Shown here: one piece after another, positions 1 to 18,158 of the stretch
How the letters are laid out: the number at the start of each line of letters is the position of its first letter
Numbering within the stretch: position 1 is the first letter of the stretch
Source of the DNA: Candidatus Magasanikiibacteriota bacterium
GTDB taxonomy: Bacteria; Patescibacteriota; Patescibacteriia; Magasanikbacterales; GWA2-37-8
Direction of reading: 5' to 3'
NCBI GenBank assembly: GCA_943359595.1
Contig: CALRIA010000002.1
Location: 10,417 to 74,416, forward strand
Length of the DNA: 64,000 nucleotides
Translations under genes and position numbers: made by a program
Notes under the pieces: model-generated
The model's database searches: none
What the model was told of the DNA's origin: nothing
The model's input: the letters and a program-made list of their open reading frames with translations, nothing else

Positions 1-349
1 ATTAATTTTACCAAAAATAAAAGAAGTAAATGAGTTAAGAGGTCAGTGTGGTTATCTGGGTAAAGTAAAAGGCGAAGTGTGTGTAGTAAATAGCTCTAAA
101 GAAATGTCCAAATTCAAAGATGGGCAGATTTTGGTTTCCGTAGTTACCGATCCATCACTTTTGCCAATTATGAAAAAAGCTGCCGCCTTTGTCACCAATC
201 AAGGCGGTCTGACCTGCCATGCGGCCATAGTAGCTCGCGAATTAAAAATACCCTGCGTTATCGGTACAAAAATTGCCACTCAAGTATTTAAAGATGGCGA
301 TATGATTGAGGTGGATGCTGAGAATGGTATTGTGAAAAAAATTATTTGA
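1..349 (+). CDS. Partial (5'-truncated at window edge) paralog P0: protein ending in a PEP-utilizing-enzyme mobile (phosphohistidine swivel) domain
   Basis: The reading frame is open from position 2 to the stop at 349. The C-terminus reads ...GGLTCHAAIVARELKIPCVIGTKIATQVFKDGDMIEVD, matching the catalytic-His motif of PpsA/PPDK/Rph swivel domains. It is collinear with six downstream paralogs. Confidence 0.75.
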   Translation, partial: LILPKIKEVNELRGQCGYLGKVKGEVCVVNSSKEMSKFKDGQILVSVVTDPSLLPIMKKAAAFVTNQGGLTCHAAIVARELKIPCVIGTKIATQVFKDGDMIEVDAENGIVKKII

Positions 350-352
350 ACT

Positions 353-1885
353 ATGAAACTCCAAAATTTAAATAATGGCGATCCGTGGATGTTGGGAGAA
401 GATATACCCAACGCTGATCTTTTTTTCTCCACTATTTGGCTCAATGGCTTTGTGAGTTTTTTTGATCAAAATACCGGTCGAGCTTACAATAAAATTCTTT
501 GTAAATATGAAGGTTATCACCTTTGGTTTTATTTTGGTGATAAAGACGCTCGTGAAGTGGCTGAACATCTGGCTGACAAAATAATAAATGAAGAAGGCTA
601 TGCCAAAGAAGTAAATAAAAATATTATTTTGGAGGCTGATAAACTTCGATCTTTTGCCGAAAAAATTCCTCAAATTAATTTAGCTAAATTATCCAATGAG
701 AATTTGTGGCAAATTTATTCTGACCACAATGGAATTCATGGTAAATATTATACTTGGGCCTGGATTCCGGTGGCAGTTGATATGTTTGGTAATAATTTAA
801 CTAAACGAGTAAAAGATTATTTGTTTCAAAAAGGTGTAGGAAATGATAATATAAACGAATTTTTAGTCATTTTGACCCAGCCAACTAAAAAGTCGCTCAT
901 ATTTATCGAACAAGAAAATTTACTAAAGATTGCGACAACTATAGCAGAAAAATATGAGTCCCTGATAAATATTTTTGAAAATAAGGAATCGGCTTACATT
1001 AAAGATAATTTACCTTTAGATATATTATCTCTAATCACAGAGCATCATGCCAAATATTATTATACAAAACATCTTTGGGTGAGCGGAGAATATAGTATAG
1101 AAGATTATCTGATTCAACTTAAAGATATTTTTAAGACTAAACAATCACCGAAAGTAATATTAGATAAACAATCACAGAAATTGGAAAAATCCAAACAGAA
1201 AAAAGAAAAGTTATTAGAGCATTTACAGATAGATCAGAAGTGGAAAGTGATATTTGAACAGTACGGTGATTTTATGGTCACCAAGATCTACCGTCGTTAT
1301 GCTCAGCTTTTGGCGGTCCATCATATGTCGGCCATACTCAAAGAGATTGCGCGGAGATTTTTTATCACTGAAAAACAGGTTCGTTTTATGAGAGTAAAGG
1401 AAGTAGAGAAAATGCTTTTGGAAAATAAATATAACGAGAGTGAATTATTGGAACGTACAAAGTATTGTGTTTATTACGCGGAGCGTGATGATGAAAAAAT
1501 TTTTATTGGGAATGAAGCCAAAGAAATAATGAAATCAATTGAGAAAGAAGTGGACATAAATATTTCAGAATTAAAAGGAGAAAGCGGTTGTGTTGGTTAT
1601 GCTAAGGGACGAGTGAAGATTATAATTCGTGCCGAAGATATGGCTAAAATGGAAGAAGGGGATATATTGGTCTCAATTGCTACTGATCCAGATATTGTGC
1701 CAGCGATGAAGAAAGCGGCTGGTATTATCACGGAACAAGGTGGGGTAACGTCTCACGCCGCGATTGTTTCGCGTGAATTAGGAATTCCCTGCGTTATCGG
1801 TACAAAAATTGCCACTCAAGTATTTAAAGATGGGGATATGGTTGAAGTGGATGCTAATCGTGGTATTGTTAAGAAAATTTTTTAA
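353..1885 (+). CDS. Paralog P1: variable N-terminal domain + C-terminal PEP-utilizer swivel phosphohistidine domain (Rph/PpsA-like without ATP-grasp)
   Basis: 510 aa. C-terminus GGVTSHAAIVSRELGIPCVIGTKIATQVFKDGDMVEVD. It starts 3 nt after the P0 stop. The N-terminal region shares blocks with the other paralogs (FYFGDKDAREVAEHLADKII; ...TEKQVRFMRVKEV). Confidence 0.75.
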   Translation: MKLQNLNNGDPWMLGEDIPNADLFFSTIWLNGFVSFFDQNTGRAYNKILCKYEGYHLWFYFGDKDAREVAEHLADKIINEEGYAKEVNKNIILEADKLRSFAEKIPQINLAKLSNENLWQIYSDHNGIHGKYYTWAWIPVAVDMFGNNLTKRVKDYLFQKGVGNDNINEFLVILTQPTKKSLIFIEQENLLKIATTIAEKYESLINIFENKESAYIKDNLPLDILSLITEHHAKYYYTKHLWVSGEYSIEDYLIQLKDIFKTKQSPKVILDKQSQKLEKSKQKKEKLLEHLQIDQKWKVIFEQYGDFMVTKIYRRYAQLLAVHHMSAILKEIARRFFITEKQVRFMRVKEVEKMLLENKYNESELLERTKYCVYYAERDDEKIFIGNEAKEIMKSIEKEVDINISELKGESGCVGYAKGRVKIIIRAEDMAKMEEGDILVSIATDPDIVPAMKKAAGIITEQGGVTSHAAIVSRELGIPCVIGTKIATQVFKDGDMVEVDANRGIVKKIF

Positions 1886-1891
1886 TTTTTT

Positions 1892-3181
1892 ATGAAACAG
1901 TCACCAAAAGAAAAAATAATAAAACAATTTTCTGCAATGCCTTGGCAACCTTGGTTGCATCGACGTTTTGATCCGTTAGTGACTTATCTCATTATGGTAG
2001 GTGGCACAAGAGAAATATTTAAAACTCAGGGGATAGATGGTGAGTTTCCAATTTCACTTTACGATACCAACGATTGGTATAGTACCCAAGAAATGCTTAG
2101 TTTAGCAAGCAATGAAGCCAAAAGTTTTTTGCAACAAAAAAATATTATTAATTTGACTCATCAATGTGACAATCTTCTTGAATTTAGTCGTACTGCAGTA
2201 GAACAATTATTATCAAATCCAGGTGATCCAAAAAAGGATTATGAACAAGTAATTAAAATTATCACACCATTAAATGTCTATGTTTGGGTAGCACATAGTT
2301 CGGAAGTTTATTATCATGATCTGATTAGCTCAGCTACTTCCGCTTTTGTCACCCCAGAAAAATTAGAAACTTTTATTGGTGACATTAGTTTTCCGGTTAG
2401 AAAAAATTCTCTCGCCTTAATGGAGAATGATATTCGCGCCGGTGAAACTACAAAAGTGCTTTATAAAAAATATGCTTGGATAAAAGCGCGTGGTGGTTTT
2501 AGGCCAGGTTATACGTTGGCAGAAATTCGAGATATTCAAAAGGAAATTTTAAATAAACCGCAAGATAAACATCGTCATGTAGAAGTTCCGCCAGCTTTAG
2601 AACAGGCTGTTGGCGAATTGCAAGAATTGGTATATTTGCGTACATTGCGCACCGATGCGCTTTGGGAATTATATTATCTAGCCCAGCCTATTTTTGATCG
2701 GGCAGCCAAAGCTTTTGGCGTTAGTTCCGTAAAAGATTATATTCCCGAAGAATTATTGAAAGGTAATATAAAGCCAGTGCCAAATAATTACGCTATTTTA
2801 AAAAATTATGACACTATTGTTGTTACTGATCCAATTATCAAATTAAAAAATTCAGAAGTTGCAAATAGTGTACGGGGTGTTGTGGCTTATCGCGGTATTG
2901 TTAGTGGGCCAGTAAAAATTATATTTACTCCTCAAGAAATCAGCAAGGTGGTGACCGGAGATATTCTTGTCACAAATATGACCATACCTGCTTATGTTTC
3001 CGCGATGTACCGCGCTGCCGCATTTGTAACTAACGAGGGAGGTATTACTTGTCATGCCGCTATTCTCGCCCGCGAGCTAAAAAAACCTTGCATCATAGGA
3101 ACCAGAGTAGCTACACAGATTTTTAAAGATGGTGATCTGGTGGAAGTGGACGCTGAAAAAGGAATTGTAAGAAAAATATAA
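1892..3181 (+). CDS. Paralog P2: variable domain + C-terminal PEP-utilizer swivel domain
   Basis: 429 aa. C-terminus GGITCHAAILARELKKPCIIGTRVATQIFKDGDLVEVD. It starts 6 nt after P1. Confidence 0.75.
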   Translation: MKQSPKEKIIKQFSAMPWQPWLHRRFDPLVTYLIMVGGTREIFKTQGIDGEFPISLYDTNDWYSTQEMLSLASNEAKSFLQQKNIINLTHQCDNLLEFSRTAVEQLLSNPGDPKKDYEQVIKIITPLNVYVWVAHSSEVYYHDLISSATSAFVTPEKLETFIGDISFPVRKNSLALMENDIRAGETTKVLYKKYAWIKARGGFRPGYTLAEIRDIQKEILNKPQDKHRHVEVPPALEQAVGELQELVYLRTLRTDALWELYYLAQPIFDRAAKAFGVSSVKDYIPEELLKGNIKPVPNNYAILKNYDTIVVTDPIIKLKNSEVANSVRGVVAYRGIVSGPVKIIFTPQEISKVVTGDILVTNMTIPAYVSAMYRAAAFVTNEGGITCHAAILARELKKPCIIGTRVATQIFKDGDLVEVDAEKGIVRKI

Positions 3182-3204
3182 AAAATAATTCTCTAAAAAG
3201 CAAG

Positions 3205-3229
3205 CACCACCGGATATTAACCGGTGGTG
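3205..3229 (+). terminator. Hairpin downstream of P2 (caccaccgg-atattaa-ccggtggtg), possible intrinsic terminator
   Basis: A 9-bp perfect stem immediately after the P2 stop. The following T-tract is weak, so it may just mark the island boundary. Confidence 0.3.
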
Positions 3230-3305
3230 TATGCACTTTTATGATTTTTCAGAAGGCGGTATGCTCAGGCGGAATGAAAAAACGGTTCCGTTTGAACTTC
3301 TTCAC

Positions 3306-3803
3306 CTAGTTGGTGCCAGTCGCGATGAATTCAATCTTGATCTCGTCGCCATCAACCTTGATCGCGTAGACTGATCCACTTTTGGCTTCCGAAAGTGGAA
3401 TGCCTAGAGCAAGCAGGACTTCGCGACCCGCGCAGATGACGGTCTCATTAGGGAGTTTTTTCAGCTTCGCCCTTAGCGATGGCCCAGCGTCTTCGCCGCT
3501 AGTGCAGGTTTCAAACGCCACCTTGATTCCGCTCGCCAGTACCAGCATCTTTTCGCCGTCGATCAACTCCAGACTGCCACAAGCACCGAAAACAGACGAA
3601 ATCTGCAACCGGACACCAGTGTCGGAATAGCCGAGCTCTTCAGCCACAGCAAAGTGCCGGAGAGCTTCGCCAATACAGACGAGCGGTGGATCGATTACGA
3701 GATGAATCCGCAACGATCGAACGCAGGTTTTGCCGGCAACGGTCATGTCTGGATCAGCACCAGTTTCCTTTTCTCCGTGGGTAACCAGATATAAGGTTTT
3801 CAT
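3306..3803 (-). CDS. SixA/PGAM-like (histidine-phosphatase-superfamily-like) small protein encoded inside GC-rich island A
   Basis: 165 aa from the ATG at 3803; the ORF track starts at a GTG at 3833. N-terminus MKTLYLVTHGEKETGADPDMTVAGKT resembles the RHG-x-x...T-x-x-G signature of SixA-type histidine phosphatases, with Thr in place of Arg. The region is about 57% GC against about 33% for the flanks. Confidence 0.35.
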   Translation of the reverse strand: MKTLYLVTHGEKETGADPDMTVAGKTCVRSLRIHLVIDPPLVCIGEALRHFAVAEELGYSDTGVRLQISSVFGACGSLELIDGEKMLVLASGIKVAFETCTSGEDAGPSLRAKLKKLPNETVICAGREVLLALGIPLSEAKSGSVYAIKVDGDEIKIEFIATGTN

Positions 3804-3995
3804 TTTTGGGCCCTTCTGTTGTATCTTAGACACCCATCATTTTCAAGCCACTCGACTTAAGTTTTTGGGATCTGTTGTAAAAGTGCATTTATTCTGGAAA
3901 GTTGCCTTAGTTAAGGCTTTTTTCACCATAAATAAACATTTTACCTTACCAAAAAATAGTCATTTTGTCAATGTCTGTGTAAATTTATGGCTAAG

Positions 3996-4018
3996 ATATA
4001 GACAAATTTTGTCTATAT
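3996..4018. promoter_or_regulatory. 23-nt perfect palindrome atatagacaaa-t-tttgtctatat about 35 nt upstream of the P3 start
   Basis: Read directly: two 11-nt arms are exact reverse complements around one central nucleotide. It lies in the intergenic gap created by island A, in front of paralog P3. Confidence 0.3.
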
Positions 4019-4049
4019 GATACTATTAAAGTAGTTAAATAAATCATTC

Positions 4050-5402
4050 ATGTTCAAAGCCAGTAAAATTTTTAAATACAGTTGGGAACTTTATGTTTCT
4101 CGTAACGTGTCTGTTTGGCACGATACTTTGCATTTGATAAGAAGTGATTCTGGTTATCATCATTACAAATTAGGTAAAATGTATGTTCAATTTAGAATTC
4201 ATCGTAATTTAGAATCGGATTTTTATTATGCACTTACTGGTAGTCGATCGGCAGAAGATTTTATTGGTCGATTAGAGAAAAATTTAGAAAAAAAAGAATA
4301 TGTTGATTTTCTTAAAAAGGAGTATCGAAAAGATTGCATAAAGTTTTTAGCTCGGTCTAAAAATTTAAAATCTACTACCAAAAGCTTAAAGTCATTTTTA
4401 AATAATTATGGCTATTGTAATGTTCTTTTAGATATAACTTCTCGAGCAAGTAAGATTTTGACCGATAAATTAATGTTTGATTTAAAGGATAATCGAAAGC
4501 GCGATGCTATTATTAGTTATTATGCTGTTCCAAAACAATTAGCACCGATTCAAAAATTAGAAAAAGAAGTGGCGAAATTATATCATGATAAAAATCTAGA
4601 TAAAATAGCTGAAAGATTATGGAAAAAATATTGCTGGATTCCGGTGAGTTTTGTAGGTGAACCTTGGAGTAAAGAATATTTTTTAAATTTGTTAAAAACA
4701 GCTAATAAAAAAGTTTTGAGAATTTCACAAAAACCAAGGGTAAAATTATCCGTTAATTTAAAACATCTTTTATGGGCACTGTCGCAGATAACCTATCTAA
4801 ACGAATATCGTAAGAGCATTTTTTGTCAGGTTAATTTGAATATCCGACCAGTTTTGAATGAAATAGCCAAACGGAGTGGTTTAAAAGATTGGAAGGAAGT
4901 TTCGTTATTGACCCATGAGGAATTAATTTTGGCTTCTGATGGTAAAAATTTTTCTAAGTTGGTGGCGCGTCGTCAAAAAGAAATTTTTGCTGTTCATAAT
5001 ATTGATAGTAATCAACTTCAGGTAGTATATGGATTACCGGTTAAAAAATTTGAAGATAATTTTAAGATAAAAAATACCAACGTATCTGAATTTAGTGGTG
5101 TTGTTGGAAATAAAGGAAAGATTATTGGTGTAGTAAAGATAATTTTAAAACACAGTGATTTTGATAAATTTAAAGATGGCGATATCCTAGTTGCCAACAT
5201 GACATCAGTAGATTATTTACCAATCATGAAAAAGGCCGGCGCGTTTGTCACCGATGAGGGTGGTCTAGCGTGTCATGCGGCGGTGGTAGCGCGCGAATTT
5301 AATTTACCCTGTATTATCGGCACCAAAATTGCTACAGTGGTTTTAAAAGATGGTGATATAGTGGACGTGGACGCCAACAATGGTATAATTAGAAAAATAT
5401 GA
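4050..5402 (+). CDS. Paralog P3: variable domain + C-terminal PEP-utilizer swivel domain
   Basis: 450 aa. C-terminus GGLACHAAVVAREFNLPCIIGTKIATVVLKDGDIVDVD. Shared N-terminal-domain block KIAERLWKKYCWIPVSF. Confidence 0.75.
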   Translation: MFKASKIFKYSWELYVSRNVSVWHDTLHLIRSDSGYHHYKLGKMYVQFRIHRNLESDFYYALTGSRSAEDFIGRLEKNLEKKEYVDFLKKEYRKDCIKFLARSKNLKSTTKSLKSFLNNYGYCNVLLDITSRASKILTDKLMFDLKDNRKRDAIISYYAVPKQLAPIQKLEKEVAKLYHDKNLDKIAERLWKKYCWIPVSFVGEPWSKEYFLNLLKTANKKVLRISQKPRVKLSVNLKHLLWALSQITYLNEYRKSIFCQVNLNIRPVLNEIAKRSGLKDWKEVSLLTHEELILASDGKNFSKLVARRQKEIFAVHNIDSNQLQVVYGLPVKKFEDNFKIKNTNVSEFSGVVGNKGKIIGVVKIILKHSDFDKFKDGDILVANMTSVDYLPIMKKAGAFVTDEGGLACHAAVVAREFNLPCIIGTKIATVVLKDGDIVDVDANNGIIRKI

Positions 5403-6472
5403 AAAAAATTTATTTAGTTTTCACTAGGGATAATAATCAGTGGGTGAATGAAATGGTAGATTTTGTTTTTGTTAATGAATTACCAAAAATTTTTGGCGCC
5501 GGTCTAACAACCCAAATTACCCGTTTTACAGGACGTACTTTTGAATGGTATCGTTTTGTTGAAGAAATGAATAAATTAAAAACGACTGTTATCAGTAAAA
5601 AATCGGTAGATCCTATTTTTCAGAAAAAAAATCAAGTTAAATTTTTAAAAGAAGTTGTCGAATTAAGAAAATTAATTTCTATAAATCCTAAGCGAGTAAA
5701 AAATGATCTTGATTTATTGCAAGAAATAAAAACTAGATTTTTGGATGTGTATCCATTGTATGTTCTAGCGGTTTTTTTGCCTGGGCCTTGGCGCGATGAT
5801 TTTATTGCAGTTCATGGCGGTGGTTCAAAACAAATTTTAAATTTATTATTTAAAAGTCGCGAAGACAGCGAAGGTCTTTTAAAGGAAATAACCAATTTTA
5901 TGCGGTCCTGGCTTGGGCCACAGTTGCAAAAGGTTGGCTACCAGGCTGATTATTTAAAGTTACTTTCCGTATCGGAAGTAGAGGAGTTTGTGAGGCTGAA
6001 AAAAATGCCTCCACATAAGGAGTTAGATCAACGTTTCAAAGGTTTTGTGTATATGTACAGCAGGCTTGTTAAGACCAAAGATTTTAAAGTTTTTCTTAAA
6101 GATGAAAATATTTCTATTGAGACAGAAAATATAGTACTAAATAAAAATAGTTTCACTGGATCAATAGCTTATGCGAGTAAAATTGTGCGCGGCAAAGTTA
6201 AAGTAGTTTTGAATTCAACAGAGATGTTTGGTTTTAAAGAAGATATGATTTTGGTTACTCCTATGACTGCTCCGGAATATTTAGCGATTATGAAAAAGGC
6301 GAAGGCAATTATTACCAACGAAGGTGGAATTACTTGCCATGCCGCGATTGTGGCCCGAGAATTAAAAAAGGCTTGTATTATCGGTACAAAAATCGCCACT
6401 TTTGTTCTAAAAGACGGAGATTTGGTGGAGGTGGATTCTCACAAAGGAATAATTAGAAAAATAAATATTTAA
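5399..6472 (+). CDS. Paralog P4 (short): variable domain + C-terminal PEP-utilizer swivel domain
   Basis: 357 aa. C-terminus GGITCHAAIVARELKKACIIGTKIATFVLKDGDLVEVD. Its ATG overlaps the P3 stop (ATGA), which suggests translational coupling. Confidence 0.7.
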   Translation: MKKIYLVFTRDNNQWVNEMVDFVFVNELPKIFGAGLTTQITRFTGRTFEWYRFVEEMNKLKTTVISKKSVDPIFQKKNQVKFLKEVVELRKLISINPKRVKNDLDLLQEIKTRFLDVYPLYVLAVFLPGPWRDDFIAVHGGGSKQILNLLFKSREDSEGLLKEITNFMRSWLGPQLQKVGYQADYLKLLSVSEVEEFVRLKKMPPHKELDQRFKGFVYMYSRLVKTKDFKVFLKDENISIETENIVLNKNSFTGSIAYASKIVRGKVKVVLNSTEMFGFKEDMILVTPMTAPEYLAIMKKAKAIITNEGGITCHAAIVARELKKACIIGTKIATFVLKDGDLVEVDSHKGIIRKINI

Positions 6473-6473
6473 T

Positions 6474-7936
6474 ATGTTTGAATATATCAAGTCTCACGAA
6501 GAACACTCGGTTACACCTTTGACTATTTCGCCCAATCACAATGCTTGGCCATCAAAGATTTTAAAAAAATTATTGGACGGTCATGAGGTAGGAGAGCAGA
6601 CTTTTTGTATTCACAGAGATCAAGGCCTGGAATTTTATGCCGATCATAATGCTTGGGATAGAGGATCGGATTATTTTTTGGAGAAATTAAAACGAGATAA
6701 AAAAATAGTAAAAGAGGTCTCTTTTAATTCTCACAGGATTGCCGATCAAATTTTAAAGAAAATCAGAAATTTTGAACGTCAAAATATAAAAAAATGGTCC
6801 AACAAAGAAATCACAAAATTTTTATCCAGTAGCTATAAGCTAGGCAATGATCTGTGTGCCTATGGTTTTATCCCGGTAATCTCCGATCATTTTTTTCATA
6901 AATTTACCGATCTCCTCAAATCTATCGTGAAAAATAAAGAAAAAAATATTTCAGTAAAAATGACCGTTCCGGAAATAATTTTTCTTTTGTGTTCTCATTA
7001 TAAACCCGTACCTTCTAAATTGGCTAGAATAAAATTATTAAAACTTTTAAAAAAAATACCAATCAAGAAAAGATAAATAATTATTACTCTGATTGGCATT
7101 GGGTAGGCTTTGGGCAGCTTGGTCCAGGAATTGAACCTCAAGAGTTTTTAGCCGGCGCCGACAGTCTCTTTAAAAATAAACATCTTATAGACAAGGAATT
7201 AAAAGAGTTGATAAATTCTCCAAAAATTTTACAGAAAAAACAAAAAGAATTAATCAACAAATTGCGTTTGAACACTCAAGAGATTTTTTTATTTTCTACC
7301 GCGCGTGAGTTTACTTATCTTAAAGGTTTAAGAATGGAAGTTCTGTTTGGTCTTTGCGCCGCTTGGAGTAAAGCGCTGGACGAAATTTCAATTCGATTAA
7401 AGATGGATAAAAAATTACTTTATTACGCTTCCATGGCGGAATTAAATTCCGCTTTGTCGGGACAACATAGTTTAAATAAAGAAATTTTAAAAGATAGAAG
7501 TAAATTTTGTGTTTGGGTAGCTAATACCGAAAGTACTCAGAAAATTTTAGCTGGCAAAGAAGCCAGAGAATTTTTGAAGACAGTTAAATTTAAAGAAGCT
7601 AAAAAAATTGAAAAAGTTTTGGTTATTCACGGTACGGTCGCGTCGGTGGGATATGCCAAAGGTACAGTGAGAATTGTGAATAAAACTTCAGAAATAAATA
7701 AAGTAAAAGAAGGCGATGTGCTGGTTTCGGTTGCCACTCATCCTGGATTACTTCCCGCCATGAAAAAGGCCTGTGCTTTTGTGACTGATGCCGGTGGTAT
7801 CACTTCGCACGCCGCCATAGTCGCGCGTGAGATGGGTAAGCCGTGTATTATAGGCACTAAAATAGCGACTAAAATTTTAAAAGATGGTGATTTGGTAGAG
7901 CTGGATACTAAGAGAGGGGATATTAAAAAAATATAA
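6474..7936 (+). pseudogene. Paralog P5, disrupted by a frameshift in an A8 homopolymer (7049-7056): N-terminal half 6474-7076 in frame 0, C-terminal half with swivel domain continuing in frame 2 to 7936
   Basis: Frame 2 is open from 7028 through 7936 with no ATG/GTG before the TTG at 7208. The combined length of about 486 aa matches the intact paralogs. Adding one A to the A8 run yields a continuous ORF (...LLKKNTNQEKINNYYSDWHW...). C-terminus GGITSHAAIVAREMGKPCIIGTKIATKILKDGDLVELD. Confidence 0.6.
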
Positions 7937-7946
7937 AAATAATTTT

Positions 7947-9455
7947 TTGAACAATATGACTAAGCACACACAAGGTGATTGGATGATGATGTCTCAGCGT
8001 CAACGCATGAGCCCGTTTCCAAACTATATGTCTATGGAATCGGTTTGCAAAGAGATGAAAAAATTTGTTGGAGTAAATTTAAAAGACGTACTTCTATTTT
8101 TTAAAGGTAACATGATGTTTGCCTTTCAAGATAGTAAAGCCCACGAACAAGCCGGACAAAAAATTGCCAGTAGGATAGAAAAAAATCCACTTATGTATAG
8201 GCGTTTGGTCAAGCAGGAAGAAATTTTTGGAAATAAATTGGTAAAATTTACCAAGTTGGCCGGACAGCAAACGAATAGTAAAACCAGCAATCGTCGTCTG
8301 TATGAGTGGTATACTCAGTATGAAAAAATGTATAAAAATGTTTATGCCACTTATGGCTCGGTTTGGACAATGGAAGATCATCTGGTAGCCAAACTTTATG
8401 ATATTGTTCACAAACGTTGGCAAGATGGCTCTAAAATTAGCAATACTTTGAATAGTTTGACCAAACAACCGCTCGCCATGGTGGCTACTATTGAGCGTCA
8501 AGCGATATTGAAAATGGCGGTAAAAATTTTGTCTTCATCCGGTTTATTAAAATTAGTTCAATCCGGGTCTTTGGAAAATATTAAAAAGAACAAGATATTG
8601 CATAAATTAATATCCACTCACGAAAAGAACTTCTTCTGGATTACCAGAGATTATGAAGATCCAATTTTAACTTATGATGATATTGTCAAAAAATTACAAA
8701 TCATTTTAAAGGAAGATCCTGTCAAACAACAAAAAGAATTAAATGATAGATTAAGTGGCGATTTACGTGAAAGAAAAAAATTGGAAAAAGAATTAAAACT
8801 CAACAAAAAAGAGTTGGCTTTGTTTGCTTCCATGCGCGATGCTGCCAATTTAAAAGAACAGCGTAAAAAATTTGTTTCTCAGTCTTTATATTATTTTGAT
8901 CCGGTTTTAAATGAGATTAGTAAAAGATTATTTTTAACTGTGAAACAGGTAAGATTTTTCCGTACTAGTGATGTTTATGAGGCTTTGGTAAAAAATAAAG
9001 ATTTGACTAGCGAATTAAATGAGCGTTTTAATTTATCAGTGTGGCATTCCAGTACCAATGGTACAAAAGTCACAGTTGGTAAGGAAGCGCAAAAAATATT
9101 TGATGAGTTTTGCCAAGTGGATAAAAATGCAAGCGAATTTACAGGCATGCCGGTGTCGCCAGGGGTGGCACGCGGTCCAGCCAAAATCGTTTTAAATCCA
9201 AATGAATGTGATAAGGTAAATAAAGGGGACATAATTGTAAGTGTTCAGGTGGTGCCAAGTTTTTCGACAGCGATTATTAAGTCAGCTGGTATAGTTTGTG
9301 ATGGTGGCCACGGTATTACTTCCCATCCGGCGACTTTGTCGCGAGAAGCGGGAGTACCGTGCGTGATTCAAACTAGATTTGTGCGCGAAGTGGTAAAAGA
9401 TGGTGATGTACTGGAAGTGGATGGATATAAAGGCATCGTAAAAATAATAAAATAA
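7947..9455 (+). CDS. Paralog P6 (most divergent): variable domain + C-terminal PEP-utilizer swivel domain
   Basis: 502 aa. C-terminus GGHGITSHPATLSREAGVPCVIQTRFVREVVKDGDVLEVD. Shared block LTVKQVRFFRTSDV. Confidence 0.7.
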   Translation: MNNMTKHTQGDWMMMSQRQRMSPFPNYMSMESVCKEMKKFVGVNLKDVLLFFKGNMMFAFQDSKAHEQAGQKIASRIEKNPLMYRRLVKQEEIFGNKLVKFTKLAGQQTNSKTSNRRLYEWYTQYEKMYKNVYATYGSVWTMEDHLVAKLYDIVHKRWQDGSKISNTLNSLTKQPLAMVATIERQAILKMAVKILSSSGLLKLVQSGSLENIKKNKILHKLISTHEKNFFWITRDYEDPILTYDDIVKKLQIILKEDPVKQQKELNDRLSGDLRERKKLEKELKLNKKELALFASMRDAANLKEQRKKFVSQSLYYFDPVLNEISKRLFLTVKQVRFFRTSDVYEALVKNKDLTSELNERFNLSVWHSSTNGTKVTVGKEAQKIFDEFCQVDKNASEFTGMPVSPGVARGPAKIVLNPNECDKVNKGDIIVSVQVVPSFSTAIIKSAGIVCDGGHGITSHPATLSREAGVPCVIQTRFVREVVKDGDVLEVDGYKGIVKIIK

Positions 9456-9469
9456 TTTATAAAAATAAA

Positions 9470-9497
9470 AACAACCTGATTAGTCAGGTTGTTTTTT
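9470..9497 (+). terminator. Rho-independent terminator of the paralog operon
   Basis: A 10-bp perfect stem aacaacctga / tcaggttgtt with loop ttag, followed by TTTT, 15 nt after the P6 stop. Confidence 0.6.
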
Positions 9498-9586
9498 AAA
9501 GCTCAATATTCTTTCGAGAAAAATATTAAGCTCTTGGGGACGCGAATTGCTTCGCGTCCCGTCGAGTGGGTGTACCCCAAAGCCCG

Positions 9587-10219
9587 TCAGTCCAACGGAA
9601 TCTTGAGCGGCTTGGCGCTGATGAAGGTCGCCTTGCCGTCCTTCACCTGGAACGTGGCCAGAACGGACTCGCCCCGGTCGACCAAGTTGTTGGCGATGTC
9701 GAGGACTTCGGCGGCGCTGCGATGGCCATTGAGCCACTGCATTGCCACTTCCATCCGCGCCACGCCGTGGCTGGTGACCAGGACGAACTTGCCGGGGTTG
9801 GCCACGGCGATTTCGGTCAGGGCGGTGGCACCTTCTTCCGCGCGCATCAGCATCAGCTCGTGCAATTCCGGCATCTCGGGCAGACACTTCGCCAGGCTCG
9901 AGTCGTCGTCGTTGCCGAACTGGGACTTCGCCATCTCCTTGAGACGATTCAGGCTGTCGGGTGCCGCGCGCTTGTCGGTCTTGAAGTCGCCCAGGCGGGT
10001 CTCGTTCTCGATCAGCAGCGAGATGCCAGCACCTTCGAGCATGCGTTCGGCAGTGCTGACCGCACGCGGAAGTGGCGAAGAGACGGCCGCTTCAATCTGT
10101 GCGGTCTTGCCCAGGACTTGACCACGCCGCCTGGCGCGGTCTGCGCCTTCGGTCGTGAGGACGTTGTTCTCGTGTTCCTCGTGTCGTGTTAACACGAGAA
10201 TGGTGGTTTTTGTGGGCAT
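9587..10219 (-). CDS. Histidine phosphatase superfamily (phosphoglycerate-mutase-like) protein inside GC-rich island B
   Basis: 210 aa from the ATG at 10219, which is preceded by the strong SD AAGGAGGTG. Motifs LVLTRHEEHE (RHG-like His1 region) and LVTSHGVARM (SHG His2 region). About 60-62% GC against a host value of about 33%. The ORF track start at 10255 is an upstream in-frame ATG. Confidence 0.6.
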   Translation of the reverse strand: MPTKTTILVLTRHEEHENNVLTTEGADRARRRGQVLGKTAQIEAAVSSPLPRAVSTAERMLEGAGISLLIENETRLGDFKTDKRAAPDSLNRLKEMAKSQFGNDDDSSLAKCLPEMPELHELMLMRAEEGATALTEIAVANPGKFVLVTSHGVARMEVAMQWLNGHRSAAEVLDIANNLVDRGESVLATFQVKDGKATFISAKPLKIPLD

Positions 10220-10309
10220 GGCCCACCTCCTTGGTTTAGCTAGAGACGCTAACATCTTCGCCGAAACCCTCGGACGAGAGATCCGGCTTGCCCGGTGACT
10301 GGTTATTCC

Positions 10310-10362
10310 CAGCTTAGTCAGTAACTAGGGATAAAATTTATCTATAGTTACTGACTAAGCTG
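10310..10362. promoter_or_regulatory. 17-bp perfect inverted repeat (cagcttagtcagtaact ...19 nt... agttactgactaagctg) at the right edge of GC island B
   Basis: Read directly. It sits in the divergent region between the island phosphatase gene (minus strand) and the AT-rich leader of the 10621 phosphatase gene. It could be an operator or a mobile-element/insertion boundary. Confidence 0.3.
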
Positions 10363-10620
10363 TGGGGTATTTAATTTTTCAAAGTACACTCACTCATTAT
10401 TGCTGTAGAACACCTATATTTACTGTTAGTAGATACGGTATGCCCATTTTGCAATAACAGTTGAGTATAGCATAAAATAGGGATTTTGTCAATATATTAA
10501 CTGCTTTTTTGGCTAAAGTTAGCTATTTAATTATTAAGGATAGCAATAATATTGGTGACTAGTGGATGGGTATGTTAAAATCCAATCTAAGTATGCTATA
10601 CTTATTATAAGTAATTTTTT

Positions 10621-11436
10621 ATGAGAGAATTTTTTGCCAGCCAAGATAGAGAATTTAATTCAGATATTGAAACAGAAAATGTTCGCGACTTACCAGTCGT
10701 GACGGCTTATATTATTCGTCATGGTGAGACCACGGAAGATAAATTAAATCCGAATCGTAGTTTGACCACAGAAGGCGAGAGTCAAGCCGACGACGCAGCC
10801 GAACAGCTAATCACCGAATTAAATCCACAGACAGACGTTATCCAAATTTTGGATAGCGGTAATCATCGCGCCAATGTGACCGTGGTGAGAATCGCGGAAA
10901 AATTAAAAGCCGCCGGTTTTAATTTTTTTGTTCCTGTACCTAGTGATAAATCCGGAAATCTGCAAGCAGAAAATATTCCTACTACTCCTGAACCAAAATC
11001 ACGTAGCTACAATAAAATTGCGGCCGCTAATATTCCAGATCAATTTAAAAAATTACTGGCTGATCCGGTATTGCACGCTGAGCTTGGACTTGGAAATGAT
11101 ATTCCGGATAAAAGAGTTATGACTTGGTTTATGATTCAAAGAGATGGTATGGAAACTCCACAGCAGGTATTGGAGAGGGTGCGCCAGGGTATGAATGATA
11201 CTCAAAAAAAATTACCTCAGTTAAATAAAGTTTTGTCGCCGGATCAACGCATTGTAGTGGTGGCGGCCGGCAATGCTTCTATGGTTGATTCGGTAGTCAC
11301 TGAAGCTTCCAAAGTTCACCCTAAAGACAGAGGTGGAGAAATTAGTAATTGTGAAGGATTTAAAGTTGATTTCAATTTAGGCGCTGATCCAAAGATTAAT
11401 TTATGGGGAGAAAATATTGAACAATATTCTAAATAA
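10621..11436 (+). CDS. Histidine phosphatase superfamily protein (host-like GC)
   Basis: 271 aa. N-terminal motif AYIIRHGETTED...SLTTEGESQA (RHG signature). Its stop is 8 nt upstream of the ATP-grasp gene, so the two are probably co-transcribed. Confidence 0.6.
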   Translation: MREFFASQDREFNSDIETENVRDLPVVTAYIIRHGETTEDKLNPNRSLTTEGESQADDAAEQLITELNPQTDVIQILDSGNHRANVTVVRIAEKLKAAGFNFFVPVPSDKSGNLQAENIPTTPEPKSRSYNKIAAANIPDQFKKLLADPVLHAELGLGNDIPDKRVMTWFMIQRDGMETPQQVLERVRQGMNDTQKKLPQLNKVLSPDQRIVVVAAGNASMVDSVVTEASKVHPKDRGGEISNCEGFKVDFNLGADPKINLWGENIEQYSK

Positions 11437-11444
11437 ATAAAATT

Positions 11445-12428
11445 ATGTCTCACATCAAATTTTTTAAACAACTTTCAAAAAGCAACGTCGATATCGCCGG
11501 TGGCAAAGGCGCCAGTCTTGGTGAGATGACGCAAGCCAAAATTTCGGTACCGCCTGGTTTTGTAGTTTTATCGGCTGCTTTTGATAGATTTTTACAAGAG
11601 ACTGGTTTAAAGGAAGATATTGTGGCGCAATTAAAAAAAGTTAATCCACAAGATACTAATTCAGTAGATAAAGCGAGTGCTGTAATTCGTGATATGATTC
11701 ACGATAAGTCGATGCCCAAAGATTTGGAAAAAGAAATTTTGGTTGCTTTTAAGAAATTAGATGCTAAATTTGTCGCAGTTCGTAGTAGTGCTACGGCAGA
11801 AGATTCAGCAATAGCTAGTTGGGCTGGTGAGTTGGAAACTTATCTTAATACCGAAAAGAAAGATGTACTAGAAAGAGTAAAACTTTGTTGGTCTTCATTA
11901 TTTACTCCACGGGCTATTTTTTACCGTCATGAAAAAAAATTGATCGATCACTATGTTTCGGTGGCAGTGGTTATCCAAAAAATGATTCAGAGCGAAATAT
12001 CCGGTGTGGCTTTTACCGTTCATCCAGTGACAGAAGATTATGACCAGATGATTATTGAAGCTGGGTTTGGTTTGGGTGAGGCAATAGTTTCAGGACAGAT
12101 TACTCCAGATAGTTATATAATTAGTAAAAGTGAAATGAGTATATTGGATATTAATATTAGTGAACAAAATAGAAAATTAATACGTAAGGTTGGTAAGAAA
12201 AAAGGAGAAGAAGATGAAGAGAATAAATCTAACCATTGGGTTAAGCTTGGCAAGGAAGGTAGTAAACAAAAACTCACTGGTAAACAAATTATTGCAGCAG
12301 CCGAGTTATTTAAAAAAATTGAAAAACACTATAATTTTCCATGTGATATTGAGTGGGCAATGGAAAAAAATAAAGTGTATATCACTCAAAGCCGTCCGAT
12401 TACAACATTAAAAAATAGCCAAATATAG
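11445..12428 (+). CDS. Stand-alone PEP synthase / pyruvate phosphate dikinase N-terminal ATP-grasp (nucleotide-binding) domain protein
   Basis: 327 aa collinear with PpsA residues about 1-340. Motifs IAGGKGASLGEM (PpsA VGGKNASLGEM), VRSSATAEDS (PpsA VRSSATAEDM) and DIEWA...ITQSRP (PpsA DIEWA...VQARP). It ends where PpsA/Rph would continue into the phosphohistidine domain. Confidence 0.85.
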   Translation: MSHIKFFKQLSKSNVDIAGGKGASLGEMTQAKISVPPGFVVLSAAFDRFLQETGLKEDIVAQLKKVNPQDTNSVDKASAVIRDMIHDKSMPKDLEKEILVAFKKLDAKFVAVRSSATAEDSAIASWAGELETYLNTEKKDVLERVKLCWSSLFTPRAIFYRHEKKLIDHYVSVAVVIQKMIQSEISGVAFTVHPVTEDYDQMIIEAGFGLGEAIVSGQITPDSYIISKSEMSILDINISEQNRKLIRKVGKKKGEEDEENKSNHWVKLGKEGSKQKLTGKQIIAAAELFKKIEKHYNFPCDIEWAMEKNKVYITQSRPITTLKNSQI

Positions 12429-12445
12429 CCAAAACAAGTTTAGAT

Positions 12446-12474
12446 TGACAAAAAGATAAAAAGGTGCTATTATA
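12446..12474 (+). promoter_or_regulatory. Sigma-70-type promoter (TTGACA-17nt-TATTAT) for the zinc-ribbon gene
   Basis: Consensus -35 at 12446-12451, a 17-nt spacer, and the -10 at 12469-12474. It is followed by a leader of about 105 nt before the ATG at 12585. Confidence 0.5.
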
Positions 12475-12584
12475 TCGCTAATAACTTGGGCAACAAGAGT
12501 AGGTCAAAAGGCCAAAATATGTTCCCAACTAGGTCGTTTATTTATTTTCCAAACAACATTTTGGAATATATAAGGAATAATATT

Positions 12585-12908
12585 ATGGCTTTTGGATCTG
12601 ATAGACAAATGTACGATGTAGACTTGACTTGCGCAAAATGCGGAGCTCACATCTCACAGTTGCCTTTCCAACCTTCAGGTGATCGCCCAGTTTACTGCTC
12701 CGACTGTAACCGTGCTTTCCGCAAGGATCGTCCAGCTACAGATCGTGGTGGACGCGCTGGCGGTTTTTCCCAAGCTCCTCGCCAGATGTACAGTGTCAAC
12801 TTGAACTGCGCATCTTGTGGTCAGCAGATTTCTGAGTTGCCTTTCCAACCAACTGGTGACAAACCAGTATATTGCCGAGACTGCATGCAGGCTCGTCGCA
12901 ATGGTTAA
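12585..12908 (+). CDS. Small protein with two tandem CxxC-x17-CxxC zinc-ribbon repeats joined by an Arg/Gly-rich linker
   Basis: 107 aa. The repeats are MYDVDLTCAKCGAHISQLPFQPSGDRPVYCSDC and MYSVNLNCASCGQQISELPFQPTGDKPVYCRDC. Linker RKDRPATDRGGRAGGFSQAPRQ. The RBS aaggaataa precedes the ATG. The ORF-track start at 12486 is an upstream in-frame ATG with no RBS. Confidence 0.6.
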   Translation: MAFGSDRQMYDVDLTCAKCGAHISQLPFQPSGDRPVYCSDCNRAFRKDRPATDRGGRAGGFSQAPRQMYSVNLNCASCGQQISELPFQPTGDKPVYCRDCMQARRNG

Positions 12909-12925
12909 TTGACAATCAACTTGAA

Positions 12926-12951
12926 CCCCTCGAATTTTCGGGGGGTTTTTT
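12926..12951 (+). terminator. Rho-independent terminator (cccctcg-aatttt-cgggggg + T6)
   Basis: A 7-bp GC-rich stem, 6-nt loop and T-run immediately after the zinc-ribbon gene. Confidence 0.7.
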
Positions 12952-14768: not shown

Positions 14769-16634
14769 ATGTCTATTATGATCACCTCAAGAGAACTCCG
14801 TCAAAAATATTTGGAATTTTTCGCCAGCAAGGATCACAAAATCTTGCCGAGCGCTTCTTTAATTCCGGAAAATGATCCGACGGTTTTATTCACTACCGCT
14901 GGCATGCATCCGTTGGTACCCTATTTGCTGGGAGAAAAACATCCAGAAGGAAAGCGTCTTACAAATATTCAAAAATGTATTCGTACTCAAGATATCGATG
15001 AAGTGGGTGATGCTCGCCATGATACTTTTTTTGAGATGATGGGAAATTGGTCTCTAGGGGATTATTTTAAAAAAGAAGCGATTGAATGGAGTTGGGAATT
15101 TTTGACTTCACCAAAGTATTTAGGTTTGGATGCTAGCAAATTGGCAGTGTCAGTCTTTGTCGGTGAAGATGAAAATGGTATCCCACGCGATGAAGAAGCA
15201 GCTGACATATGGAAGAGTTTAGGGATGGCTGAAGAAAAAATTGTTTATCTACCACGCAAAAATAATTGGTGGGGTCCAGCTGGACAGACGGGTCCATGCG
15301 GGCCGGACACCGAAATGTTTTTTTGGAAAGGGGAGAGTGAATTTCCTCCAGTCGGTAGTAACCCTGGTACTGATGAAGATAATTGGTTGGAAATTTGGAA
15401 TGATGTTTTCATGCAATATAACAAAAGTGAAGATGGTCAATACAAGCCGTTGGTTCAGAAAAATGTAGATACGGGCATGGGCTTAGAAAGAACTTTGGTT
15501 ACTCTCAATGGTTTTATTGATGTATTTCAGATTGATACTTTTTGGCCATTGATTCAAAAAATTGAAGAACTATCTGGTCGTGAATATATCGAAAATTCTG
15601 AAGTGACCAAATCAATGCGTATCATTGCCGATCATTTGCGCACAGCTACAATGATTATGGGTGACGACAAACAAATCGCTCCTAGTAATGTAGATCGGGG
15701 ATATATTGTTCGTCGTTTAGTTCGTCGCGCGATACGTCATGGGCGCTTGCTCGGAATTCATGAAAATTTTTGTGATAAAATCGCAGTCGAAGTGATTGAA
15801 ATCTTTAAAGATGTATATTCGGAATTAGAGCGAAATCAGGAATTCGTAATGCTTGAATTGGCAAAAGAAGAAAGCAAATTTAGAAATACTATCGAACAGG
15901 GGATGAAAGAATTTGAAAAATTATTAAATGGTTTTAGAATTGCTTTTGAAAAAACAGGGAAAAATGTTACTGAAATTTCCGGCAAACAAGCTTTTAAATT
16001 ATTTGAAAGTTATGGTTTTCCTTTGGAGATGACTTTGGAGATGGCTCAAGAAAACAGTTTGACTGTAGATGTAAATAATTTCGAAGAATCTTATAAAATA
16101 CATCAAGGTCTATCACGTGCTGGCGCCGAACAAAAATTTAAAGGTGGCTTGGCTGATCATGGTGAGATGTCGGTAAAATATCATACCGCTACTCATCTGT
16201 TGCATGCTACTTTACGCCAGGTGCTTGGGTCACATGTTGAACAGCGTGGTAGTAATATTACTGCTGAACGTTTGCGTTTTGATTTTTCTCATCCGGAAAA
16301 AATGTCTGATGATCAAAAAAAACAAGTTGAAGATCTAATCAATTATGCCATTCAACAAAATTATAAAGTATCGTTTGCTGAAATGACGGTGGACGAAGCC
16401 AAAAATAAAGGCGCGATTGGGTTGTTCGAAGATAAATATGAAAATAAAGTAAAAGTATATTCAGTCGGCGAACCGGATGTGATGCCGTCTGCCACTATAA
16501 ATTCCCAAACATTTAGCAAAGAAATTTGTGGTGGTCCACATGTGGAGCATACTAATATTATGGGGAAATTTAAAATCCTAAAAGAAGAAGCGGTGTCCTC
16601 CGGTATTCGTCGCATAAAAGCTGTTCTTCAATAA
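14769..16634 (+). CDS. alaS: Alanyl-tRNA synthetase, short form lacking the C-terminal C-Ala domain
   Basis: Class II AlaRS catalytic core (FTTAGMHPLVPYL, FFEMMGNWSLGDYFK) plus editing-domain motifs (HTATHLLH...CGGPHV). It is 621 aa against about 875 for E. coli. Confidence 0.9.
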   Translation: MSIMITSRELRQKYLEFFASKDHKILPSASLIPENDPTVLFTTAGMHPLVPYLLGEKHPEGKRLTNIQKCIRTQDIDEVGDARHDTFFEMMGNWSLGDYFKKEAIEWSWEFLTSPKYLGLDASKLAVSVFVGEDENGIPRDEEAADIWKSLGMAEEKIVYLPRKNNWWGPAGQTGPCGPDTEMFFWKGESEFPPVGSNPGTDEDNWLEIWNDVFMQYNKSEDGQYKPLVQKNVDTGMGLERTLVTLNGFIDVFQIDTFWPLIQKIEELSGREYIENSEVTKSMRIIADHLRTATMIMGDDKQIAPSNVDRGYIVRRLVRRAIRHGRLLGIHENFCDKIAVEVIEIFKDVYSELERNQEFVMLELAKEESKFRNTIEQGMKEFEKLLNGFRIAFEKTGKNVTEISGKQAFKLFESYGFPLEMTLEMAQENSLTVDVNNFEESYKIHQGLSRAGAEQKFKGGLADHGEMSVKYHTATHLLHATLRQVLGSHVEQRGSNITAERLRFDFSHPEKMSDDQKKQVEDLINYAIQQNYKVSFAEMTVDEAKNKGAIGLFEDKYENKVKVYSVGEPDVMPSATINSQTFSKEICGGPHVEHTNIMGKFKILKEEAVSSGIRRIKAVLQ

Positions 16635-17729: not shown

Positions 17730-18116
17730 ATGAGAATTGCTAGTACCAATATCCCCAATGATAAGAAGATTGCCTACGCTTTACCGTATGTTTACGGTAT
17801 TGGCCCAACTTTGGCAACCAAAATCTTAAAAGATGCGGGTATCGATGGAAACATTCGTGCCAAAGATCTGACCGAAGCTCAGCAAGATAAATTGCGTGCT
17901 ATCGTAGAAAAAGATTACAAAACTGAAGGTGATTTGCGTCGTGAAATCATGAGTAATATCAAGCGCTTGAAAGATGTTAAATGTTATCGTGGTATTCGTC
18001 ATATGAAACATTTACCAGTTCGTGGCCAACGCACCAAGACTAACTCTCGTACTGTGCGCGGCAATGTTCGCAAGACTGCAGTTAGTGGCAAGAAGTTGGC
18101 TGGTCAGAAGACTTAA
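17730..18116 (+). CDS. rpsM: 30S ribosomal protein S13
   Basis: MRIASTNIPNDKKIAYALPYVYGIGPTLATKIL... The ORF-track start at 17658 is a spurious upstream extension that overlaps rpmJ. Confidence 0.9.
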   Translation: MRIASTNIPNDKKIAYALPYVYGIGPTLATKILKDAGIDGNIRAKDLTEAQQDKLRAIVEKDYKTEGDLRREIMSNIKRLKDVKCYRGIRHMKHLPVRGQRTKTNSRTVRGNVRKTAVSGKKLAGQKT

Positions 18117-18158
18117 AGTAGACGCTTGTTAATTTTAACTACCAGAGATTTATAAAAT

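Follow-up and report, generated by a model that had tools for sequence, protein, structure and literature searches.

Two-component small-molecule dikinases have been described as the phenylphosphate synthase PpsAB(C) of Thauera aromatica, CreHI of Corynebacterium glutamicum and HpeHI of Rhodococcus rhodochrous, and each of them consisted of an ATP-grasp protein and a second protein that joined a substrate domain to a swivel-His domain (PMC12167813; PMC9618137). In HpeHI, the histidine was essential, the complex between HpeH and HpeI was only transient, and HpeH alone was able to move phosphate from 4-phosphoacetophenone to acetovanillone. A structure resembling rifampin phosphotransferase (Rph) has been reported for HpeH, and within the Hpe pathway the HAD phosphatase HpeD strips the phosphate after an intermediate step. 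It was not until 2025 that these enzymes were recognised as a subfamily, and then in aromatic catabolism only. Here, we describe a locus on contig CALRIA010000002.1 of Candidatus Magasanikiibacteriota bacterium (GCA_943359595.1), at the beginning of a stretch of 64,000 nucleotides that we refer to as the window. It contained seven genes for proteins ending in a swivel-His domain (acceptors W0 to W6) and one gene for a free-standing ATP-grasp protein. We consider it probable that the locus encodes a multi-acceptor dikinase of the Rph/PpsAB/CreHI/HpeHI kind, where one ATP-grasp protein charges many substrate-specific acceptors in trans.

The preliminary description of the window had regarded the separation of the two modules as undescribed. 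This claim failed because the split was already characterised, with the same division of labour, in PpsAB, CreHI and HpeHI. What was apparently new was the one-to-many stoichiometry and the distribution among bacteria of the Candidate Phyla Radiation (CPR) and DPANN archaea, since our literature searches (open-access PMC and bioRxiv) found no paper on either of them.

The ATP-grasp (PPDK_N) subunit was encoded at 11445..12428(+) and, like the seven acceptor genes, was confirmed at its expected coordinates on the map of open reading frames (ORFs). With 327 aa, it fell within the ~320-390 aa of stand-alone PPDK_N polypeptides in two-component dikinases. A profile search gave PF01326 only (E 3e-96, profile positions 2-315 of 328) with no second domain, and the protein ended, as had been proposed, where phosphoenolpyruvate (PEP) synthase and Rph enter their His domains (PRK06464 positions 5-341; Rph 6-313). 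It also matched 9goj, a 387-aa ATP-grasp-only chain that we take to be HpeI (E 8e-44). In a pairwise alignment with Rph (5fbs), K22, R117, T136 and E297 corresponded to K21, R113, T132 and the Glu of the DIEW motif; Lys22, Arg117 and Thr136 position ATP in Rph and were needed according to mutagenesis. This was the sole PPDK_N domain within the window. Its orthologs were 84% identical in the closest relative (locus L002) and 59% in L004, and the differences from the former were mostly at third codon positions (0.14/0.08/0.51).

All seven acceptors carried PF00391 at the C-terminus (E 1e-13 to 7e-28) and had no other significant Pfam match, in agreement with the preliminary description. Of W0 (1..349, +), only the 3' end with the swivel-His domain lay in the window (E 9e-28; 89% identity to the L002 ortholog over these 89 aa); its complete length was at least 425 aa according to the sister assembly (locus L001), where the gene at 1-1278 was ended by the contig end. 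W1 (353..1885, +; 510 aa) had an Rph-like substrate-binding N-domain and a C-terminal swivel His, H468. W2 (1892..3181, +; 429 aa; E 7e-24) and W3 (4050..5402, +; 450 aa; E 2e-24) belonged to rare divergent subfamilies. The full-length relatives of the W2 N-domain were at best 27-30% identical (L087, L008), and the nearest one of W3 was 35% identical (L065, full length). W4 (5399..6472, +; 357 aa; E 3e-24) was a short acceptor with an N-domain of ~265 aa and an 82% identical L002 ortholog. W5 (6474..7936, +) was interrupted in this assembly, had PF00391 in its 3' part (E 1e-24) and was 76-82% identical to its L002 ortholog. Finally, W6 (7947..9455, +; 502 aa; E 1e-13) had the most divergent His domain of the paralogs (GGHGITSHPA), a 68% identical L002 ortholog and 12 more orthologs elsewhere.

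Within the motif GG-x-T-[CS]-H, the residues G463, G464 and H468 were invariant in the seven paralogs and in 36 W1 orthologs, and the pattern T/S-x-x-G-G-x-x-x-H of two-component dikinases was present within ~50 residues of the C-terminus. All of the paralogs had Thr two positions before the His. The DUF299 regulatory kinase/phosphatase acts on the Thr at this position in PEP synthase and pyruvate, phosphate dikinase (PPDK); the window ORFs of at least 200 aa included no DUF299 protein. At their 3' ends, W0 and W1 were 87.5% identical at the DNA level over 112 nt (236-347 and 1772-1883), compared with only ~66% protein identity of their His domains overall, and gene conversion between these neighbouring paralogs may have acted at the extreme C-terminus.

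The N-domains were mutually homologous by BLAST links, and 292 of 298 N-domains from 82 loci formed a single component at E<1e-5, consistent with the shared blocks that had been noticed earlier. The NCBIfam models of Rph, PRK06241 and PigC/RedH could be aligned beyond the His domain, over up to ~170 residues on its N-terminal side, as in W1, where residues 266-507 corresponded to NF004877 634-866; PRK08296 models were matched in the His domain only. An AlphaFold model of W1, built with the alignment of 36 orthologs, had a pLDDT of 92.4 and a pTM of 0.89. Rph was the closest solved structure and the only one that aligned with the model over 415 residues, while the other strong structural matches spanned just the swivel domain of ~100 residues. 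Thus, the modelled N-domain of W1 has the Rph substrate-binding fold, which bore out the Rph-like substrate domain suggested at first from sequence, and the order of this domain and the C-terminal swivel domain on one polypeptide was that of two-component dikinases. Moreover, a profile alignment, of low confidence in this stretch, placed the phosphate-binding helix of Rph (Y-R666-E667-Y-P-K670-Y) opposite an invariant T-K311-I-Y-R314-R315-Y. Here, K311-I312 lay opposite R666-E667 and R315 opposite K670, R314 was invariant across the paralogs, and the basic residues, not the Glu, were kept.

The stoichiometry was examined in the species-representative genomes that encoded a W1 relative. We retrieved 80 loci (78 after duplicate removal) from many Patescibacteria classes as well as from Nanoarchaeota and Woesearchaeota (DPANN), and scanned them with home-built hidden Markov models (HMMs). 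In the 43 loci that spanned 15 kb or more, the number of acceptors had a median of 5 and a maximum of 10, almost always on one strand, and there was one or no free ATP-grasp gene and never two. Exactly one ATP-grasp gene was present in 9 of the 11 multi-acceptor arrays that were flanked on each side by at least 3 kb of other sequence, and in 32 of 37 loci this gene followed the array on its downstream side. The window, with seven His-domain ORFs for one PPDK_N in 64 kb, thus departed from the arrangement of one acceptor gene per ATP-grasp gene. When the N-domains were grouped at 35% identity, all but one of the 16 largest groups had at most one member per locus. As nearly all of the N-domains were nevertheless linked, the acceptors represented a family that was old and diversified into orthologous groups, and not the product of recent tandem duplication. 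This pattern, the close orthologs in L002 and the predominance of third-position differences in the ATP-grasp gene were taken as signs of selection on the system.

An exhaustive HMMER scan for the W1-type N-domain gave ~1,150 representatives (50% clusters), and their Pfam domains revealed natural fusions. Namely, P0274 and P0391 had the order ATP-grasp, N-domain and His domain, and the first of these was followed by a free acceptor gene. P0322, P0325 and P0367 had the N-domain, the His domain and then the ATP-grasp, the same as the usual gene order. Four His domains and one ATP-grasp were combined in P0305 (2,309 aa; L089 2012-8941), three acceptors in P0268 (1,500 aa), and an N-domain, a His domain and a HAD phosphatase (HAD_2) in P0299. 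Several acceptor units were also joined in an ORF of 1,390 aa in L042 (4371-8540). The giant ORFs (L089, L042 and P0268) may be real polyproteins or merged gene calls; the context of L089 looked archaeal. Independently, the fusions connect the ATP-grasp protein, the acceptors and a phosphatase in function. The earlier proposal of a nucleotide-binding module uncoupled from its family of acceptors was therefore backed in two ways, by the co-occurrence of the ATP-grasp gene with arrays of PF00391-terminal proteins across dozens of genomes and by the fusion proteins.

We propose the following mechanism for this system. The free ATP-grasp protein would bind ATP, and an acceptor would dock onto it with its C-terminal swivel domain. 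The acceptor His (GG-x-T-[CS]-H) would then attack the beta-phosphate, with the gamma-phosphate leaving as Pi, and the phospho-His domain would swing back to the Rph-like N-terminal domain of the same acceptor and pass the phosphate to a bound hydroxyl-bearing substrate (net reaction ATP + X-OH + H2O -> AMP + X-O-P + Pi). One ATP-grasp protein would serve each of at least seven acceptors in trans, and if its complexes are as transient as that of HpeHI, a single donor could move between several acceptors. The diverged N-domains would correspond to differing substrate specificities, most likely for small molecules. The phospho-esters may be acted on by the embedded phosphatases (PhoE-like here and HAD-like in other genomes) in a way comparable to HpeD. 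Phosphorylation could then be a transient step by which metabolites scavenged from a host or the environment are trapped or activated.

Several observations weighed against this proposal. The CPR/DPANN branch was known from genes and predicted structure alone, and nothing at the locus pointed to the identity of a substrate. The ATP-grasp gene was 2 kb from the array in the window and, judging by the predicted sites, probably in a separate transcription unit. HpeH, CreH, PpsA of PpsAB and Rph have been reported to carry Met two positions before the His (PMC12167813); the Thr in all of our paralogs instead placed their His domain in another lineage than that of the characterised two-component enzymes. 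The Rph-like fold was modelled for W1 alone, and for W2-W6 it would follow from sequence links. Glu667 is essential in Rph, where the Arg666-Glu667 pair is required for the second phosphotransfer; its counterpart in the low-confidence alignment was Ile in W1 and variable among the paralogs. No ATP-grasp gene was located within 10 kb of two fully visible arrays (L056 and L062) and of most solo genes of the W1 type, many of which were archaeal. In addition, the ATP-grasp counts covered loci and not whole genomes, and further copies may be located elsewhere.

It was possible to explain the same enzymology in another way, with the acceptors as a battery of Rph-like inactivating kinases against antibiotics, toxins or xenobiotics at the host surface, that is, as a product of resistance or an arms race and not of salvage. 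The variability of the arrays would suit such a role, as would the fact that Rph was the closest solved structure. The 298 N-domains fell into 72-117 groups at 30-40% identity. Orthologs of W0, W1, W4, W5 and W6 were 68-89% identical in L002; W2 and W3 were extra in the window and missing from this close relative. Similarly, the gene in the slot after W1 had an N-domain that was only 27% identical in L008, where the W1 N-domain was 79% identical. On the other hand, W1 was the universal and most conserved member of the acceptor family, with 43-81% identity from Magasanikbacteria to Nanoarchaeota, which fitted a core function better. A role in defence, which had been suggested earlier, found no backing, as none of the 10 locus proteins had a PADLOC match. 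The remaining part of the window was ordinary chromosomal housekeeping sequence of a Patescibacteria (Magasanikbacteria-like) genome with no mobile-element signature adjoining the array, and the embedded phosphatases would reverse an inactivation. Thus, we regard the inactivation of toxic compounds as unlikely, albeit the least unlikely of the alternatives.

Somewhat less probable still, in our opinion, was that the acceptors work independently of the ATP-grasp protein, shuttling phosphate between phospho-metabolites or taking it from another donor, while the ATP-grasp protein serves a single acceptor or something else. Phosphotransfer by HpeH alone, the solo W1-type genes and the two arrays lacking a nearby ATP-grasp gene were in line with this possibility. 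It was opposed by the single ATP-grasp gene in 9 of the 11 fully visible arrays, by the acceptor-ATP-grasp fusions in both orders and the ORF that combined one ATP-grasp with four His domains, and by the lack of the PEP-binding TIM barrel PF02896 in the window ORFs of at least 200 aa.

We gave a low probability to a regulatory phosphorelay or protein kinase resembling VadK or Enzyme I of the phosphotransferase system (PTS), in which proteins would be the ligands of the N-domains. A regulatory role is known for VadK (Rv1127c; PMC13400623), an autophosphorylating His kinase derived from PPDK, and it shows that an ATP-grasp and a swivel-His domain can gain such functions, the hub-and-spoke layout resembles the PTS, and one of the neighbouring phosphatases had a weak SixA-like match. 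Enzyme I itself has an HPr-binding subdomain and a PEP-binding C-terminal domain, and our proteins matched only its swivel subdomain of ~100 aa (TIGR01417, 43 bits against a cut-off of 342).

The database names of the acceptors and the ATP-grasp protein were often 'phosphoenolpyruvate synthase' or 'pyruvate, water dikinase', and many of the related genomes were deposited as 'uncultured Gammaproteobacteria' despite a Patescibacteria-like gene content. In a search for a full-length PEP synthase, PPDK or Rph in the window, the ORF of 884 aa was ClpB, and no other ORF carried PPDK_N, PF00391 or PF02896. The frameshift in W5 arose at ~7034/7035, where the 10-bp direct repeat TTATTAAAAC had lost one of its copies. 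In the sister assembly GCA_964734745.1, W5 was intact and encoded 490 aa; this assembly was aligned with the window over 8,862 nt with 0 mismatches, and the repeat deletion was the sole gap. As an otherwise identical assembly carried the gene intact, the interruption is a slippage or population variant or an assembly error and not decay. A split genuine PEP synthase for gluconeogenesis, or decaying fragments of PEP synthase or Rph, had in its favour these names, the frameshift and PRK06464 as the best NCBIfam model for both domains, but this reading was already contradicted and hardly credible, because the PRK06464 scores (337 and 132 bits) were far from the equivalog cut-off of 598, PF02896 was absent from the locus and from the window ORFs of at least 200 aa, and the acceptors had orthologs in dozens of species with at most one copy per group.

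We return to the multi-acceptor dikinase and the genes around it. The preliminary description had presented the array as seven consecutive genes forming a single operon, separated from the ATP-grasp gene by 2 kb. All of the seven genes were indeed on the same strand, with an interval of 1 nt (and not 2 nt) between W4 and W5, but an antisense ORF at 3306..3833(-) split the third gene from the fourth. The 2-kb gap was also real and contained two overlooked genes of the histidine-phosphatase superfamily. A terminator-like hairpin was found on the minus strand at 3229-3205 near the antisense ORF, and a palindromic one at 9467..9496, with a 13-pair stem and A-run and T-run flanks, between W6 and the convergent phosphatase gene WHP1. 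A promoter-like site preceded the second phosphatase gene WHP2 (10575-10602), and WHP2 was probably co-transcribed with the ATP-grasp gene 8 nt downstream of it. Based on these consensus promoter and terminator sites, the region was suggested to comprise several transcription units and not one operon.

WHP1 (9587..10219, -) encoded a protein of 210 aa with an intact catalytic core, namely the RHG-type nucleophile His, two Arg, the second His and the acidic proton donor of histidine phosphatase branch 1. Its fold resembled the small-molecule phosphatases PhoE, CobC and RosC. These cap-domain enzymes fitted better than SixA, and a phosphohistidine phosphatase of the SixA type was therefore rejected for WHP1. 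WHP2 (10621..11436, +) belonged to the same superfamily (RHGE motif; PF00300, E 2e-6) and had a weak match to sixA (TIGR00249, E 3e-7) under the cut-off; no counterpart of it was present in L002. The antisense ORF at 3306..3833(-) had 175 aa (called as 165 aa, 3306-3803, in L001) and a GC content of 0.525, and its N-terminal 'LYLVTHGEK' resembled a degenerate RHG phosphatase motif. We did not accept it as a histidine phosphatase, as it had no Pfam match and our own HMM of the RH[SG]xKDG family gave a non-significant E of 0.065. Histidine-phosphatase-like genes were located opposite the array strand in ~17 loci. In addition, a HAD-like gene of ~205 aa was found on the array strand inside the arrays of 19 loci, usually abutting an acceptor (e.g., L043 15689-16318, L020 15464-16165 and L049 13073-13690). 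It matched the Pfam HAD Hydrolase model weakly (E 0.06) and was not found in the window.

The antisense phosphatase-like genes were GC-rich (0.50-0.65, compared with 0.33-0.44 for their loci). Examples included the window (9587-10255(-) and 3306-3833(-)), L002 (15734-16363(-)) and loci L011, L014, L022, L025, L027, L031, L040, L074 and L086. WHP1 had a GC content of 0.62 in a locus of 0.34, its codon-position pattern confirmed a coding ORF, and the GC content at third codon positions was 0.79 (0.85 in the 70%-identical L002 ortholog). The two orthologs differed at 34% of the synonymous sites, compared with 47% for the neighbouring ATP-grasp gene. A recent transfer from a GC-rich donor was considered and rejected, since WHP1 belonged to a 16-member family of proteins all ~210 aa long with no close outside relatives, its ortholog was equally GC-rich, and a search for a GC-rich donor lineage found none. 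Folding of the GC-rich segment deviated modestly from shuffled sequences (z -2.8 and -3.7 with 20 shuffles). One idea would be that codon de-optimisation throttles the phosphatase. In any case, these conserved GC-rich antisense genes represented a separate puzzle in gene-level base composition.

Several other features of the window were also observed. Directly after the ATP-grasp gene, a zf_Tbcl_2 gene with two treble-clef zinc-finger repeats was encoded at 12486-12908(+); its counterpart in L002 was at 17824-18147. This gene had a raised GC content of 0.46 and was bracketed by a strong promoter-like site of its own (12445-12473) and a site resembling a terminator (12923-12948). A gene for a TrwB/VirD4-like coupling protein was located just upstream of the arrays in 15 related Magasanikbacteria-type loci (such as L002 6313-8487 and L017 8030-9985), and such a gene probably also lies directly past the left edge of the window. 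Further away, unusual architectures and a tyrosine recombinase gene were found at 56116-58023(-), 54698-55717(-), 14769-16634(+) and 48280-49227(-). Among them were a fusion of a class II (D/K/N-type) aminoacyl-tRNA synthetase with DUF2000, a Ham1-NUDIX fusion and a short alanyl-tRNA synthetase of 621 aa that ended at the second additional domain. No structured RNA family from Rfam was found across the whole window.

Taken further, the multi-acceptor dikinase could be viewed as a hub-and-spoke kinase platform of CPR and DPANN genomes, in which a single ATP-grasp protein charges up to 10 swivel-His modules in trans, the array is the main trap or activator of metabolites, and the antisense, codon-deoptimised GC-rich phosphatases represent a throttled opposing reaction. 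We put this wider scheme forward tentatively, as we judge the chances to be somewhat against it. If it is true, the ATP-binding domain would be paid for once, each new specificity would cost ~1.3 kb, and the array would take up ~1% of a genome of ~1 Mb. The split architecture was multiplied into large, ancient and highly diversified arrays in ultra-small Patescibacteria and DPANN, the metabolism of which is largely unknown and dependent on scavenged compounds. If one ATP-grasp protein does serve many acceptors, these arrays would be a case of modular kinase construction and would be indicative of the compounds that the symbionts obtain from their hosts. Moreover, owing to the current names 'PEP synthase' or 'pyruvate, water dikinase', metabolic reconstructions of CPR bacteria can acquire false steps of gluconeogenesis.

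In comparison to the known systems, the locus was most similar to PpsAB, CreHI and HpeHI, with which it shared the separate ATP-grasp-only subunit, the acceptor with an Rph-like domain and a C-terminal swivel His, the co-location of the genes and, in the case of Hpe, a phosphatase. However, these systems have one acceptor per ATP-grasp protein, compared with at least seven here and up to 10 elsewhere. They also phosphorylate phenolics and belong to catabolic clusters of free-living bacteria, whereas our arrays were in CPR bacteria and DPANN archaea and had no carboxylase or catabolic partner. Rph (5hv1, 5fbs), PRK06241, PigC and RedH are single chains, unlike the split polypeptides described here; the identity to the Rph N-domain was ~15%, the counterpart of Glu667 was not conserved, and the scores of W1 (79.6 bits) and the ATP-grasp protein (262.9 bits) did not reach the Rph cut-off of 999 bits (NF041857). 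The ATP-grasp and swivel domains were closest in sequence to PEP synthase PpsA (EC 2.7.9.2; 8a8e, E 3e-68 and 1e-29), and the GG-x-T-[CS]-H-AAI motif included the Thr that is the regulatory site of this enzyme. In contrast to PpsA and PPDK, there was no PEP/pyruvate TIM barrel, an Rph-like substrate domain was placed N-terminal to the His, and the modules were on separate proteins. VadK likewise combines an ATP-grasp and a swivel-His domain with no PEP/pyruvate domain, but it is a regulatory single chain that lacks the Rph-like substrate domain. Finally, the layout of one hub and many spokes was reminiscent of the PTS, in which Enzyme I serves many Enzymes II through HPr, although here the donor would be ATP via the ATP-grasp protein and not PEP, and the locus had no HPr, Enzyme II or evident membrane transport component.

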